Shown piece by piece: positions 3-63,878 of a stretch of 64,000 bases of DNA; position 1 is the first letter of the stretch; each line of letters opens with the position of its first letter. The position numbers were made by a program, and so were the translations under genes. Under the pieces are notes generated by a model, which had not been told where the DNA came from, did no database searches, and worked only from the letters and a program-made list of their open reading frames with translations. The DNA lies in the IMG/VR virus record IMGVR_UViG_3300043398_000057. One strand, 5' to 3'. Origin of the DNA: a virus.

Positions 3-932
3 GCTGGTTATTTTTATCGTACCACTGATGAACAACTTTCTTCTACATGGTCAAGTCTTTCACTTCCCGGGGTCGCACCACAAAGAAATACTGACACACT
101 CGGACCAAATTTTACCAAGAAATTTTCTCTTCGTTCAATGTTTATCAACAAGCATTGGATAAATGGACCGACAAATGGAAATGACGCAAAAGACTGGTTG
201 CGCAGAGCGTTTCTTAATGGTGTTGACTATTCAATCGCATTGATTCAATATCACATGCGATTGATTCGACAAAATGGATATACAAACCCCAAATTTGGTA
301 TCTATGAATGGCACAGTCATGATGATGAATGGGTTAGTCATATTGCTAGAGATGTTGCATGGCCCGGCGCTGCTGGTGATCCCGCGTGGCACGCTTGCAC
401 TTACAACAGTACAACGGGTGAAGCAACACCTGCAAATTTGACGCCGGTTCCCGGGTATCCAAGTAATCATGCTGGTATTCCATTGACACAAATGTTTGAT
501 ACTGGCGACATTGTAAGATGTTTGGGTGCCGGACAATCTGGTAATGCACTTAGAGAAGACCGCACATTCAAAGTTCGCATCACTGGTGACAATAAACTGA
601 GGTTTTACTCAACTCAGGCAGCATTTGATAGCGACACTCCAATTACGGGAGCCAGCGGAACAAACATTTATGTCGTGAACGTGTCTCGGCATCAAGCATT
701 GTTCAATCAGAGAATGGATTATCTGTTAGGCACCGATGGTCAAGAAGTTTTTGATTATTGGTGTCAACAATGGGAACAATCTGAGCATAAAATTGATTTT
801 GCTTGCTAGTTTGTATCCGGTATTGCTGATCCATTGACTAGCGCCGGACCTCCCGTTAAACCGTGGACAATGAGTCGGAAGGGTTTGCATCCTGAGAGTC
901 ATCTGAGTAATTGGTGGAGAACACGACAATAA
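3..932 (+). CDS. Hypothetical protein, 5'-truncated by window edge; one internal TAG (807-809)
   Basis: Frame open from window start; continues 40 codons past the TAG to TAA 930-932, followed by a TAAATA motif and hairpin. Confidence 0.7.
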
Positions 933-947
933 CATTTGTCGCAACAC

Positions 948-974
948 TAAATATGGGGCATCATTGCCCCATAT
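948..974 (+). promoter_or_regulatory. Late-promoter-like TAAATA overlapping a hairpin upstream of gp4
   Basis: TAAATA 948-953; inverted repeat ATATGGGGCA-TCAT-TGCCCCATAT. Confidence 0.55.
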
Positions 975-992
975 TCATTTAAGGATTGCACT

Positions 993-1487
993 TTGGCTAC
1001 AACGAACAAAAACTTTGGTGGTTCAAGTCGATATAATCAGGGTGAGTTTCGTCCAAAGAACCCTCTGAAGTATCGCGGAACATACCCAATCATCTATCGA
1101 TCAAGCTGGGAACTTCTGTTGATGAAGTTCCTTGATGAAAACCCATCAATCATCGAATGGGGGTCTGAAAGTATTGTGGTTCCCTACATTTCGCCTATCG
1201 ATGGTAGAGAACACCGGTATTTCTTGGACTTTGTTGCCAAGATCATCACCAAGTCATCCAACGTCAAAATCATTGCGATTGAGGTGAAACCATTTGCGCA
1301 AACCAATCCACCAGTGCAACCAAAACGTCCAACAAAGAGTTATGCGGAGGCTGTCAAGACGTATCAGGTCAATAAGGCAAAATGGGCGTTCGCAACGGAA
1401 TACTGTAAGCGCAGAAAAGTTGATTTTGTGATTTTCACTGAGTACGATCTTGGTTTGAAGAAGAGAAAGGAACCGGCTGGTGGCTGA
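993..1487 (+). CDS. gp4: Head completion nuclease (T4 gp4-like)
   Basis: PKNPLKYRG, IIYRSSWE, WGSESIVVPYISPIDGREHRYFLDF, IEVKP motifs. Confidence 0.92.
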   Translation: MATTNKNFGGSSRYNQGEFRPKNPLKYRGTYPIIYRSSWELLLMKFLDENPSIIEWGSESIVVPYISPIDGREHRYFLDFVAKIITKSSNVKIIAIEVKPFAQTNPPVQPKRPTKSYAEAVKTYQVNKAKWAFATEYCKRRKVDFVIFTEYDLGLKKRKEPAGG

Positions 1488-2142
1488 TAAAATTCTGACC
1501 GAACCGGGTGGTCCCGCAGCAATCATTCCACCAAACATCTACGGTAAAAAGTTTGACGTTTTCTAGTGGGTCAAGACGCAAAAGAACTATTCGACCGAAC
1601 GTTCTATGCGATGGTTCAAGCAAAAGATCGGAATGCTTTCGCTCAAGCCCAATGATCCTAGATTGCGTTCAACTCGCCAGTACGCCAAGTTGTCTATGTC
1701 TAGGCCACATTTCTTCGTCTATGAGGCGGAAACGTCCTCTGTGAAGGGTATGGAAGTCTATGACCGGTTTCCGCTTGTTCTGCCGTTTGCCGTGAACCTT
1801 GAGAACGGTACCTTCCATGGCATCAACTTCCACCACATTCCACCAGACCTTAGACTTGTTGTGTTTGATCGTCTGATGGCAGCAAGTTCACGCGGGTTCA
1901 GTGAAGAATCAAGAATTCGTGCTGAATGGCAAACTCTGAAAGCGTTGGCAAACCATCCGGTCATTTCTCAAGCTGTGAAATGTTATCGTTTTGATAGAGT
2001 GAAATCCCTCTACATTCGTCTGAGTTTGGAAGAATTGCTCATGAGTATCTTCATGCCAGTTGAATGGTTTGTTGACCTGAAATCCGGCAGAACCGTAAAT
2101 AAATCTAGGGTTTTTGCACAGATTAACAGGAACATGCGCTAA
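1480..2142 (+). CDS. gp2: DNA end protector (T4 gp2-like); internal TAG 1564-1566
   Basis: YDRFPLVLP and GINFHHIPP motifs; GTG 1480 has an AAAGGA RBS and is in frame through one TAG. Confidence 0.85.
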
Positions 2143-61334: not shown

Positions 61335-61346
61335 GATTAACCTTTC

Positions 61347-62717
61347 TTACATTGTCCAACCGGAAAAGTCTGTTGTTCCGGTACTTTCACCACCATTGTT
61401 GATAACATCCGACATTTGGGCTTGCGCCTTTTGGGTCTGAGTGTTGTCAACATCATACCACATCATCTTGTCTGTATCGACGCCAATCGCGAAGCAATTG
61501 TAGTAGTCGATTGATCCAAAACGATTCTTCAATTGCTTGATAATACGTTGCTTCATAGCCTTCAGGTCATCTGAAGTGATCATGACGAACATGCTGTCAA
61601 GCGTCATTGGGATACCCCAAGATTCCGAAACATCATTCATTCCCGGGTCAGAGCTTCCGCCACCACCACGGGTTGTTTGCACGGCAGTCCATACAACAGT
61701 GTTTGTCTAAATTGCCATAGACCGCAACTCTTCAGCAACCGATTTTTGTAGCGTGAATGAGTTTGCTTGAGTGTTCTTAACTCTAGCCGAACCAACGATA
61801 CCCATATAGTCAACCACGATCTAATCGGGTACGAAATTCTTAACTCTTTTCAGTTCATCGATCAGGGCTAGAAAATGGTTAGCGTTTGCGCCACCGGTAG
61901 GAAACTCTCTAACGATCAGTTTACCGAAACCCTTGTCTTTCAGACTGTTGATGCGTGAAATAAAATCACTCTTTGTCATACGCATCAATTGATCTTGGTC
62001 AACTTCAAAACGGCATTGGTCGAAACGTTTTGAGATTTCTTCCTGAGCCATTTCAGCGGTAATGTACAAAACATTGTATCCAGCATTCAATGCGCCACGC
62101 GCAATGTTTACCAGACCAAGGGTTTTACCCGCATGGGGCGGCGCCATCAAAGCATTCAGGGTTTTTCTTGTTGGCCCACCACGCATCACCTTATCGAAAA
62201 ATGGATGCCCCGTGGGAATCTTCAAATCCTTCTTGTGGTAATACTCGAAACGGTTTTCAGCATCATCCTCATAATCATGCCCAACTCGCGTGTCGAATTT
62301 AACGCTTAGTGCATCCTGAAGAATTGATGGGATAGCATCAGAAGAACGTTTTTCATCATCACCATTGGCAATGGTGATACTTTCCATGAGTGCATTGAAA
62401 AGTGCATTATCCTTACAGAAAGTCTCAGTTTCATCAATCAGCCAAGAAACCTCATACTCTTTCGAGAAGTCGATTGATTCTAGCTTTTCTGTAATACCAT
62501 CAAGAACACTTTCGGTCTAGTTCTTCGCCTTTGACAACGAGATTTCAACTTGTTCCTTTGTGGGGCAACGCTTGTACTTGTCAAACAGATGAACGATGAT
62601 TTTCAGAAGAACCTTATCAGACTTTTCCTTAAAGTATTCTTCCTTCAGATGTGGAATGACTTGCTTTGCGTAAGCCTCATACTTCATCAAACCGGTAAAA
62701 ATTAGTGTTTCAATCAA
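61347..62717 (-). CDS. gp41: Replicative DNA helicase; internal TAG at 62519, 61823, 61709
   Basis: Three ORF-track fragments in one frame; Walker A APPHAGKT, YITAEM, REFPTG, VDY, SESWG, KQLKNR. Confidence 0.95.
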
Positions 62718-62738
62718 TGTGTGAACCCCTTATAGTTC

Positions 62739-62778
62739 TGTGCCTCAACTGCTACTATTGTAACACAGTTGAGGCACA
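62739..62778. promoter_or_regulatory. 13-bp inverted repeat between uvsX and gp41
   Basis: TGTGCCTCAACTG..CAGTTGAGGCACA; loop reads TGTTACAAT on the minus strand. Confidence 0.55.
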
Positions 62779-62804
62779 TTCAGTTACGCGCGAAAAGGGT
62801 TTAC

Positions 62805-63878
62805 TTAATCGTCACTATCCAGTGCATCGATTTCAGCCTCTCGATTGCGGGACTCTTCCAGCTTGTGACCAAGTTTGTACTTGCCCATGATGAAATTGTC
62901 GAACTTGTCACACTTGAGAATATCGGACCAGAATTCTTCGGTTTCGGTATCCTTCAGGCGCAGCTTACCACCAATCAGTTCACCGGTAGAGATATCAACC
63001 TTTTGATACCAACCTTGATTGGGCTTGACAACGTGACCGGATTCAAGTGCAATATCCATCAGACCGGAATAGGTCTTGATACCACCATCAAAGGTAACGG
63101 TAAATTCCAGCTTTGACTTTTCCTTGACGTAACGCGACTTTTCAACAGTCAGCTTAAAGTTGTATCCGATCAGGTCGGTTCCTTCTTTTTCTTGACTCTT
63201 TGTGATGATGAAGCCAGTGTTTGCACTGTACATCAGACCGGTACCACCGCTGATGATGGCCTTAGAGTACATTTCCATGGTGTTGTAGGTGTGGCAGATT
63301 GCCAAACATGGAATGTCTTTTGCTACCAGCGAAGGTGTCACCATACGGAACAACGACTTGATGGACTTTGCACGTTGCATGTCGGCAACAGACTTTTCAT
63401 CAAGTGCGTCTTCAAGTTCCTTCAACGATGCAGTGTTACCAATCGAGTCAATCGCAATGATGACCTTATCGCCACGTTCGATTTCCTTGAGTTGACGAAC
63501 AATGTCAAACTTCAACATTTCGATATGTTCGATAGGAATGTGAATAACTCGCGACGGATCGATACCATGGGTCTTCAGGTACGCGGGGGTAATACCACCT
63601 TCCGAATCGTACAGAATGCAAACAGCTTCGGCATACTTGTCGAGATATGCCTTGACACACAGAAGCGTCAGAAGAGTTTTGTAGGACTTTGATTCACCGG
63701 CAATAAGGGTCTAACCACTTGACATACCACCACGAGTAGAACCAGAATACGCCACGTTGATGATAGGAATGTCAACCTGAATCACATCCTTGTCATGAAA
63801 CATCACCGATTCACTCAGAACAGAGGCATTCTTGGTGGGTGATGCCTTCAGAAGTTTTTCCATCAGTTTACTAGCCAT
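62805..63878 (-). CDS. uvsX: RecA-like recombinase; internal TAG at 63713-63711
   Basis: INVAYSG..GG..G*TLIAGESKSYKT, YDSE, IDSIGN, SVADMQRAK, KSRYVKEKS. Confidence 0.95.

Follow-up and report, generated by a model that had tools for sequence, protein, structure and literature searches.

The stretch of DNA considered here (the window, 64,000 nucleotides) corresponds to bases 52040-116039 of the IMG/VR virus record IMGVR_UViG_3300043398_000057, a single sequence of 144,840 bp with a GC content of 43%, classed by IMG/VR as complete with direct terminal repeats. Many of its genes contain in-frame TAG codons. We argue from sequence comparisons that this T4-like phage very probably (about 0.9) reads TAG as a rare leucine codon, decoded by a phage-encoded tRNA of leucine type with anticodon CUA, hereafter tRNA(CUA). 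Pfam and PHROG searches identified a T4-type gene set comprising the gp20 portal, the gp23 major capsid protein, the prohead scaffold, gp6, gp25 and another baseplate wedge protein, a split TerL, gp16, gp2, gp13, gp15, the gp21 protease, RegA, a DnaB-like gp41 and UvsX. The closest isolate is Synechococcus phage BUCT-ZZ01 (Kyanoviridae), with 56% identity for the capsid protein and 45% for the portal. The phage represents an environmental, T4-like and Kyanoviridae-like lineage. The TAG-bearing genes of the window are listed below, in window positions as everywhere in this text unless genome coordinates are specified; an asterisk within a peptide marks TAG.

1..932, + strand: 3' part of a 734-codon open reading frame (ORF; genome 50767-52971); TAG at 807, two more TAGs upstream of the window
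1480..2142, +: gp2 DNA end protector (PHROG 429); TAG at 1564 (codon 28)
2142..2888, +: tail-tube-family protein (PHROG 45, match from residue 1); TAG at 2184 (codon 14)
3744..4299, +: two small ORFs; TAGs at 3849, 3918 and 4237
4296..4676, +: TerL N-terminal fragment with an intein-N-like tail (PHROG 5989 and translation); TAG at 4542 (LK*PRQCGK), just before Walker A
4663..5664, +: free-standing homing-endonuclease-like ORF between the TerL halves (333 codons); TAGs at 5110, 5506, 5560 and 5620
5674..7446, +: TerL C-terminal part with an intein-C-like start (Pfam Terminase_6N, Terminase_6C and Intein_splicing); TAG at 5914
7451..8566, +: 371-codon gene; TAGs at 7550 and 8258, where homologues have V and L
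9904..11295, +: three small genes; TAGs at 9937, 10535 and 10708, all kept in a 98.7%-identical ENA contig (L177)
15246..16757, +: gp20 portal (Pfam Portal_T4, E 1e-144, residues 57-488); TAG at 15732 (codon 162)
18823..19464, +: gp21 head maturation protease (PHROG 207, residues 1-211); TAG at 18862 (codon 13)
22626..23030, +: gp25 baseplate wedge (PHROG 261); TAG at 22953 (codon 109)
23030..24835, +: gp6 baseplate wedge (Pfam Gp6-like_1st); TAG at 24092 (codon 354)
26773..28503, +: baseplate wedge subunit (PHROG 438); TAG at 27811 (codon 346)
34851..36431, +: structural protein (PHROG 697); TAG at 35586 (codon 245)
37772..42426, +: two paralogous fibre genes (46% identical); TAGs at 38243, 38876, 38903, 39698 and 40603 (and 40120, see below)
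44606..48045, +: fibre-assembly-like ORF, gp13, gp14, gp15 and gp16 (PHROGs 1084, 211, 227 and 445, with matches spanning the TAGs); TAGs at 44756, 45232, 45721, 47192, 47704 and 47740
48326..48778, +: weakly supported ORF, present in an initial ORF set only and absent from the codon-usage set; TAG at 48596
58448..58861, -: RegA translational repressor (PHROG 242, E 5e-48); TAG at 58766-58768 (codon 31)
61347..62717, -: gp41 replicative helicase (Pfam DnaB_C); TAGs at codons 66, 298 and 336 (62517, 61821 and 61707)
62805..63878, -: UvsX recombinase (Pfam T4_UVSX_C and RecA); TAG at 63711-63713 (codon 55)

Genes were called from ORFs scored by a codon usage learned from long ORFs under translation table 11, with TAG scored as neutral. 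An initial ORF set built greedily was dropped, since ORFs on the wrong strand had brought in numerous spurious TAGs. In the whole genome 171 genes were called, and 62 in-frame TAGs are spread over 47 of them. For the window, the codon-usage-scored set plus three extra ORFs gives 41 in-frame TAGs, 36 on the plus strand and 5 on the minus strand, the first at 807 and the last at 63711-63713. At 40120, TAG is the first codon after a GTG start that was extended too far; it probably lies upstream of the true start and would then not be translated. Without it 35 and 5 are left, in agreement with a preliminary description of the window, made from the sequence alone, which had counted about 40 TAGs (35 on the plus and 5 on the minus strand). 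The same description had named gp17, gp20, gp21, gp25, gp6, gp13, gp15, gp16, regA, gp41 and uvsX as essential genes interrupted by TAG, and the Pfam and PHROG matches confirm these names. With 62 uses, TAG makes up 0.15% of the codons; TTA is rarer (32 uses) and CTA roughly twice as common (108 uses).

In principle, these TAGs could be real stops, pseudogene lesions or assembly errors, the fragments being the actual products. Coding density is 88% under table 11, as compared to about 92% with TAG as sense, so that recoding is easily overlooked. However, true stops would truncate essential single-copy genes such as those for the portal, TerL, gp41, UvsX and gp21, and many of the ORF fragments obtained under table 11 merge into full-length genes once TAG is taken as sense. 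Most of the Pfam and PHROG matches in TAG-bearing genes run across the TAG. When eight further T4-like genomes and about 90 partial loci were compared by tblastn, homology extended past 39 of the 62 TAGs; among the 23 that no such alignment spans, a few may still be stops. The same TAGs are present in independent assemblies from at least five other samples, which argues against an assembly or base-calling artefact. No sequence motif or local read-through signal was found around the 62 TAGs, and a matching tRNA is encoded. The 171 genes end in TAA (83) or TGA (88) and never in TAG, an outcome fixed by the construction of the gene set. Two observations independent of this construction indicate that TAG is not a terminator: there are almost no TAGs near the 3' ends of genes, and the base following an in-frame TAG is T in only 6 of 62 cases, as for sense codons, versus 62 of 171 after the real TAA and TGA stops. 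TAG is thus a rare sense codon in this phage and TAA and TGA are the sole terminators, as had been proposed from the gene ends traced previously. That the TAGs are stops, lesions or errors is, in our view, extremely improbable.

Which residue is inserted was best addressed with close relatives, and these were difficult to reach. A search of IMG/VR with the major capsid protein of the phage gave no close relative (best 56% identity), and searches with its gp41 and TerL gave few loci and again no close relative. The same was true for metagenome contigs searched with the portal (best 46%), for full-length gp41 searched against 5.8 billion proteins (no close homologue, best 52%) and for a gp14 search. 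In the searched protein collection, the portal, terminase, helicase and other genes of the clade are held as fragments, and it was only through table-11 fragments clustering with proteins of other assemblies (exact-cluster look-ups) that close relatives were found. One of them is distinct: three contigs (L169, L172 and L176; 21.8 kb in total) of Logan run SRR30451274, with 82-85% nucleotide identity and 79-97% protein identity over the alignable genes (the 83% relative below). Strain-level contigs, 95-99% identical, came from ENA (ERZ27251563, ERZ27251575 and ERZ27251588), JGI (3300026473) and Logan (SRR7686837). Two further Logan contigs, of SRR35181283 and SRR35181284, were recorded without their DNA; the 31-kb contig of SRR35181283 has the same table-11 split pattern, e.g. 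a portal of 162 + 252 amino acids. Eighteen sites carry TAG in one genome and a sense codon in another.

TAG in this genome, sense codon in the other:
RegA codon 31: CTG (Leu), in an otherwise identical 15-residue context
gp25 codon 109: TTG (Leu)
gp6 codon 354: TTG (Leu)
Wedge protein codon 346: TTG (Leu)
TerL-N codon 82: TTG (Leu), in identical context
ORF at 3744, codon 35: TTG (Leu)
Gene at 34851, codon 245: TTG (Leu), in a 98.3%-identical ENA contig (L173)
gp41 codon 298: GTT (Val)
gp2 codon 28: GTA (Val)

TAG in the relative, sense codon in this genome:
gp25 codon 27: CTA (Leu)
gp25 codon 74: CTT (Leu)
gp6 codon 30: CTG (Leu)
gp6 codon 386: TTG (Leu)
Wedge protein codon 70: TTG (Leu)
TerL codon 137: TTG (Leu)
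TerL codon 141: TTG (Leu)
ORF at 3744, codon 43: CTA (Leu)
Tube codon 185: TCT (Ser)

The interchanges thus go in both directions and 15 of the 18 are with leucine codons (TTG 10, CTG 2, CTA 2, CTT 1), the others being two Val and one Ser. Given a leucine frequency of 6.9%, this corresponds to a binomial P of 2.5e-15. Residues flanking the sites are nearly identical between the genomes. Of 386 ordinary leucine codons of this genome in these alignments, 352 are leucine in the relative too, and TAG accounts for 8 of the rest. Such leucine-dominated exchanges in near-identical context indicate that TAG comes and goes like any synonymous leucine codon, mostly in exchange with TTG, and we consider this comparison of related sequences as the decisive evidence for TAG = Leu. 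Two of the sites, RegA RET*TRIG and TerL K*PRQ, had been picked out in the preliminary description as diagnostic for leucine, and they are CTG and TTG, respectively, in the relative.

Other TAGs are conserved. The tube TAG at codon 14 is kept in three relatives (two strain-level samples and the 83% relative), that of gp21 at codon 13 in three independent samples, and that of the fibre gene at codon 157 (38243) in two ENA samples. For gp2 codon 28, two strain-level contigs keep TAG, the 83% relative having the GTA listed above. In the small ORFs at 3744..4299, this relative has TTG at 3849 and still TAG at 3918 and 4237. At the locus matching 1..932, a relative of about 83% identity has one uninterrupted gene of 740 amino acids. 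The recoding is common to two or more lineages of species rank and is seen repeatedly in independent datasets. In the ENA contig records, the recorded gene calls at L178:1068-1709 and L179:463-1104 give gp21 at its full 213 amino acids despite the TAG at codon 13; the gene caller behind these records evidently read through it.

The preliminary description had anticipated a tRNA-Leu(CUA), and a good candidate is present. ARAGORN places a minus-strand cluster of six tRNA genes at genome 26.5-27.9 kb, which lies outside the window. The cluster comprises Pro(UGG), a tRNA of 85 nt with anticodon CUA, Thr, Ser(UGA), Asn and Leu(CAA), and each of the six passes the Rfam tRNA model. The tRNA(CUA), which scores 48 bits, is a class II tRNA located at genome 26609-26693 (minus strand), about 25 kb upstream of the window. 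It has 69 of 85 bases (81%) in common with the phage's own tRNA-Leu(CAA), being identical to it at positions 7-24 (D arm and loop, of Leu type, with G18 and G19) and sharing the variable-arm core CCGAAAGG, the T stem and the discriminator A73. The five-pair anticodon stem is wholly different and yet paired, and one pair of the variable stem is altered on both sides, i.e. in a compensatory way. An anticodon stem that has been rebuilt and still pairs points to a maintained, functional gene rather than to a one-base anticodon mutant. We therefore regard tRNA(CUA), from its sequence, as a diverged duplicate of the phage tRNA-Leu(CAA) that is predicted to function. The phage tRNA-Ser differs from it by G73 and a longer variable arm. 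In a blastn search of 50,697 phage records, all annotated look-alikes of tRNA(CUA) are tRNA-Leu and the best among the unannotated are tRNA-Leu(UAA); blastn against E. coli genomes gave no match. Upstream of the cluster there are sigma-70-like promoters whose -10 boxes are extended, and tRNA-Pro is followed by a terminator-like hairpin; these are consensus matches only. Pattern scans of IMG/VR for a Leu-type tRNA(CUA) found nothing related. They gave one unrelated high-GC viral contig, IMGVR_UViG_3300029288_001178, with an 85-nt Leu-like class II tRNA with anticodon CUA at 7241-7325.

Distant homologues were used in a column test. An earlier likelihood test with an empirical substitution matrix, which placed Met slightly above Leu, was superseded by this test and then by the close-relative comparison. 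Profile hidden Markov models (HMMs) for 46 genes were made from homologue columns anchored on the phage genome (our own small profiles, not those of Pfam), and log emission probabilities were summed over the 26 TAG columns with at least three homologues, following the logic of Codetta. Leucine came first, followed by Val (-10.9 natural-log (ln) units) and Ile (-14.2). The mean leucine emission is 0.16 in TAG columns and 0.08 in random columns (z = +4.8, the highest of all residues; permutation p = 5e-5). In a control with 26-column resampling for each sense codon, the right residue was called for most codons. The test calls Ser when applied to IMGVR_UViG_3300035661_000043, a contig with a Ser-type tRNA(CUA) described below, and can thus tell Leu and Ser apart. 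The proposal that TAG is sense throughout the genome and stands for leucine, made previously from the sequence alone, is in this way supported both by the interchanges and by an HMM-based decoding as then suggested. At gp41 KN*TE (codon 66), for instance, 120 homologues have L 67, I 24 and V 13, and at PD*IVVDY (codon 298) they have V 43, I 40 and L 20, both sites having been put forward for leucine.

Glutamine (NCBI table 15) is the residue assigned to TAG in the published recoded gut phages and the default assumption in the literature and in annotation tools. It is hardly conceivable here: no Gln codon occurs among the 18 interchanges, Gln lies 34 ln units below Leu in the column test (z = -0.8), and the tRNA is class II and Leu-like, not Gln-like. 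Insertion of another residue, i.e. Met, Val or Ile, or Tyr or Ser from a class II scaffold, deserves somewhat more attention, since the column test is blind to Met versus Leu, 2 of the 18 interchanges are with Val and some TAG columns are aromatic. We nevertheless consider it very unlikely, as 15 of the 18 interchanges involve leucine codons, A73 and the D and variable arms of tRNA(CUA) are those of the phage tRNA-Leu and not of its tRNA-Ser, and TAC and TAT columns call Y in the control, which TAG columns do not. In addition, MetRS, ValRS and IleRS, the synthetases for Met, Val and Ile, depend on the anticodon.

Several points weigh against reading TAG as leucine in this phage. Because ATG columns also call Leu in the control, the column test does not by itself distinguish Leu from Met. 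Among distant homologues, TAG columns are less uniform than those of ordinary leucine codons (mean leucine emission 0.16 versus 0.22-0.27). At several TAGs the residue conserved in homologues is Glu (gp41 codon 336) or Tyr/Phe (portal codon 162, gp13 codon 234). No recovered contig of a relative covers the tRNA cluster. Finally, the code and release factors of the host have to be assumed to be standard. Concerning the aberrant columns, the portal TAG faces Y, F or L in homologues, the one at 45721 Y or F, the one at 47192 F, Y or L, and UvsX codon 55 K (5) or L (3). The gp41 codon 336 (61707-61709; AI*TNT), already singled out as a poor fit in the preliminary description, is indeed one: Glu occupies this position in 113 of 120 homologues, and the 83% relative keeps the TAG. 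Either leucine is tolerated at a near-invariant Glu, or this is a special site. Glu (GAG) and Tyr (TAY) codons are one base from TAG, hence a single step from a leucine codon under the new code, and this may explain the Glu and Tyr sites.

How would such a code operate? The anticodon is not an identity element for LeuRS, SerRS and AlaRS, the synthetases for Leu, Ser and Ala. Since LeuRS recognition is independent of the anticodon, and the E. coli LeuRS with a tRNA-Leu(CUA) forms a working amber-suppressor pair (PMC10954879), the host leucyl-tRNA synthetase would be expected to charge the phage tRNA(CUA) with leucine. The charged tRNA would then compete with host release factor 1 (RF1) at UAG. 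TAG and TTG would interchange freely between related genomes because they are one base apart and synonymous under this code. A changed termination could also have been indicated by a phage release factor, for which the preliminary description had envisaged RF2; no gene with an RF1/RF2 domain was found across the phage genome.

The TAGs are not placed at random along the genes. Among the 39 TAGs in homologue alignments, 12 lie within the first 35 codons (9.1% expected, p = 1e-4) and 25 within the first 100 codons (28.7% expected, p = 7e-6), and mis-called starts do not account for this bias. This could mean that suppression is not fully efficient, early positions being the cheapest for failed read-through or serving to gate expression on the tRNA supply. 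A refinement of the leucine reading would then be that TAG is a leaky stop with limiting leucine read-through, and that 5'-proximal TAGs throttle expression until the tRNA accumulates. Besides the 5' bias, the rarity of TAG and the lack of an RF1/RF2-domain gene in the phage are in line with this idea, as is the longest TAG-free run, 19 small genes at 48042-58370, which could be an early gene block free of TAG. This block is weakly supported, P being 0.012 before correcting for the choice of the longest run. However, the density of TAG per 1000 codons is similar in genes with homologues (1.6) and in orphan genes (1.3), and gp41, UvsX, RegA and gp2 carry TAGs as well as the virion genes. Moreover, the free exchange of TAG and TTG between relatives is what one would expect of a neutral synonymous codon, and the base after TAG is sense-like. 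Such a throttle therefore seems doubtful to us, although it has more in its favour than the alternative residues.

Two loci of the window deserve mention in their own right. A block of about 30 residues (GITSIQ*PGSTSGTVTLVPNAVAGTTTLTLP) is identical in the two fibre paralogues, down to the position of its TAG (38243 and 40603), which suggests gene conversion or a strong constraint on the TAG-containing segment. Opposite the TAG at 38876 the paralogue has Leu; two other fibre TAGs align with Asp and Ala, in divergent stretches. TerL (4296-7446) is split inside Walker A: the first gene ends in PRQCGK followed by a short Cys-led tail, and in the second the Intein_splicing match precedes the terminase domains. 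In the 83% relative, the aligned sequence jumps from about 4562, just past the TAG at 4542, to codon 128 of the second TerL gene. The endonuclease-like ORF at 4663..5664 had no family match, and its codon-usage score gives weak support.

TAG also seems to have been given a sense meaning elsewhere in this broad group. IMGVR_UViG_3300035661_000043 is a related T4-like contig (52% identical capsid protein, 45% complete) in which 42 of the 99 called genes contain in-frame TAGs, 117 in all. Encoded on it are a 90-nt tRNA(CUA) at 57520-57609, whose D arm matches tRNA-Ser, and an ochre-reading tRNA(UUA) at 50036-50111. Its TAGs align mostly with Ser and Thr of the present genome, and in the column test Ser stands 5.7 ln units above Glu. 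This suggests that the contig reads TAG as serine by means of a Ser-type tRNA(CUA), which would be a second amber code. In another T4-like record, IMGVR_UViG_3300048672_000064, 6 in-frame TAGs were seen in alignments to proteins of the present phage, opposite S, V, N, T and F; it may be recoded in the same way. Synechococcus phage BUCT-ZZ01 (ON615601.1), which has 28 tRNAs, carries a 76-nt tRNA(CUA) at 118326-118401. In alignments of its genes, in-frame TAG is not in excess of TAA or TGA, so that this phage seems to have a suppressor tRNA but no recoding of the genome as a whole. Synthetases blind to the anticodon (Leu, Ser) seem to offer an easy way to a suppressor tRNA. We give an even chance to the broader idea that the meaning of amber is lineage-specific in aquatic T4-like phages, being set by which tRNA of an anticodon-blind synthetase (Leu versus Ser) became the suppressor, that amber codes arose repeatedly, and that 5' TAGs are a built-in throttle tied to the tRNA supply. 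If true, such codes would be mistranslated by tools that assume TAG = Gln. Density-based surveys would probably miss genomes with a recoding as sparse as the present one (0.15% of codons, a density change of about 4 points), and recoded environmental phages may thus be under-counted. For practical purposes, the present phage genome can be translated with table 11 plus TAG = L.

No paper on TAG or UAG as leucine in phages was found in the searchable literature, only work on mitochondria, ciliates and engineering; the recoded-phage papers found there have TAG = Gln, TGA = Trp or leave the residue open. In NCBI tables 16 and 22, TAG is leucine in chlorophycean and Scenedesmus mitochondria. Phyllopharyngean ciliates read UAG as leucine via Leu-like tRNAs with a CUA anticodon, and the authors reason likewise on LeuRS identity (PMC11687900). 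Codon and amino acid are the same as in these organelles and ciliates, and in the phage TAA and TGA remain stops. However, organelle and ciliate genomes own their release factors, whereas here a virus would impose its code in a host that presumably still terminates at UAG. E. coli supP is a laboratory amber suppressor derived from tRNA-Leu. With supP and the E. coli LeuRS/tRNA-Leu(CUA) pair (PMC10954879), the phage system shares a tRNA-Leu with a CUA anticodon and, by analogy, charging by an anticodon-blind LeuRS. Unlike them, the phage tRNA(CUA) is natural, has a completely rebuilt anticodon stem and is relied upon by an entire genome, which makes it a candidate for an efficient amber-suppressor tool.

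Among recoded phages, the crAss-like, Lak, Garnet, Topaz and phAss-1 phages use TAG = Gln (table 15), and Agate and Jade use TGA = Trp (10.1101/2021.08.26.457843; PMC9523058; PMC11210395). The preprint of Borges et al. reports that recoding is concentrated in late or lytic genes and has no mention of leucine or serine (10.1101/2021.08.26.457843). In the present phage, TAGs occur in replication genes as well as in late genes. The present phage resembles these cases in having in-frame stops in conserved genes, a phage-encoded stop-reading tRNA, genes fragmented by table-11 callers and a host presumed to use the standard code. In contrast to them, it belongs to a T4-like environmental lineage and not to the gut phages, its TAGs are sparse with only a small effect on coding density, no release-factor gene was found, and the residue would be leucine, carried by a class II tRNA-Leu scaffold. 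TAG = Leu in a T4-like lineage would add a phage code beyond the TAG = Gln and TGA = Trp of the searchable literature and annotation tools. What is new relative to known phage recoding is the amino acid, the tRNA scaffold and the phage lineage.

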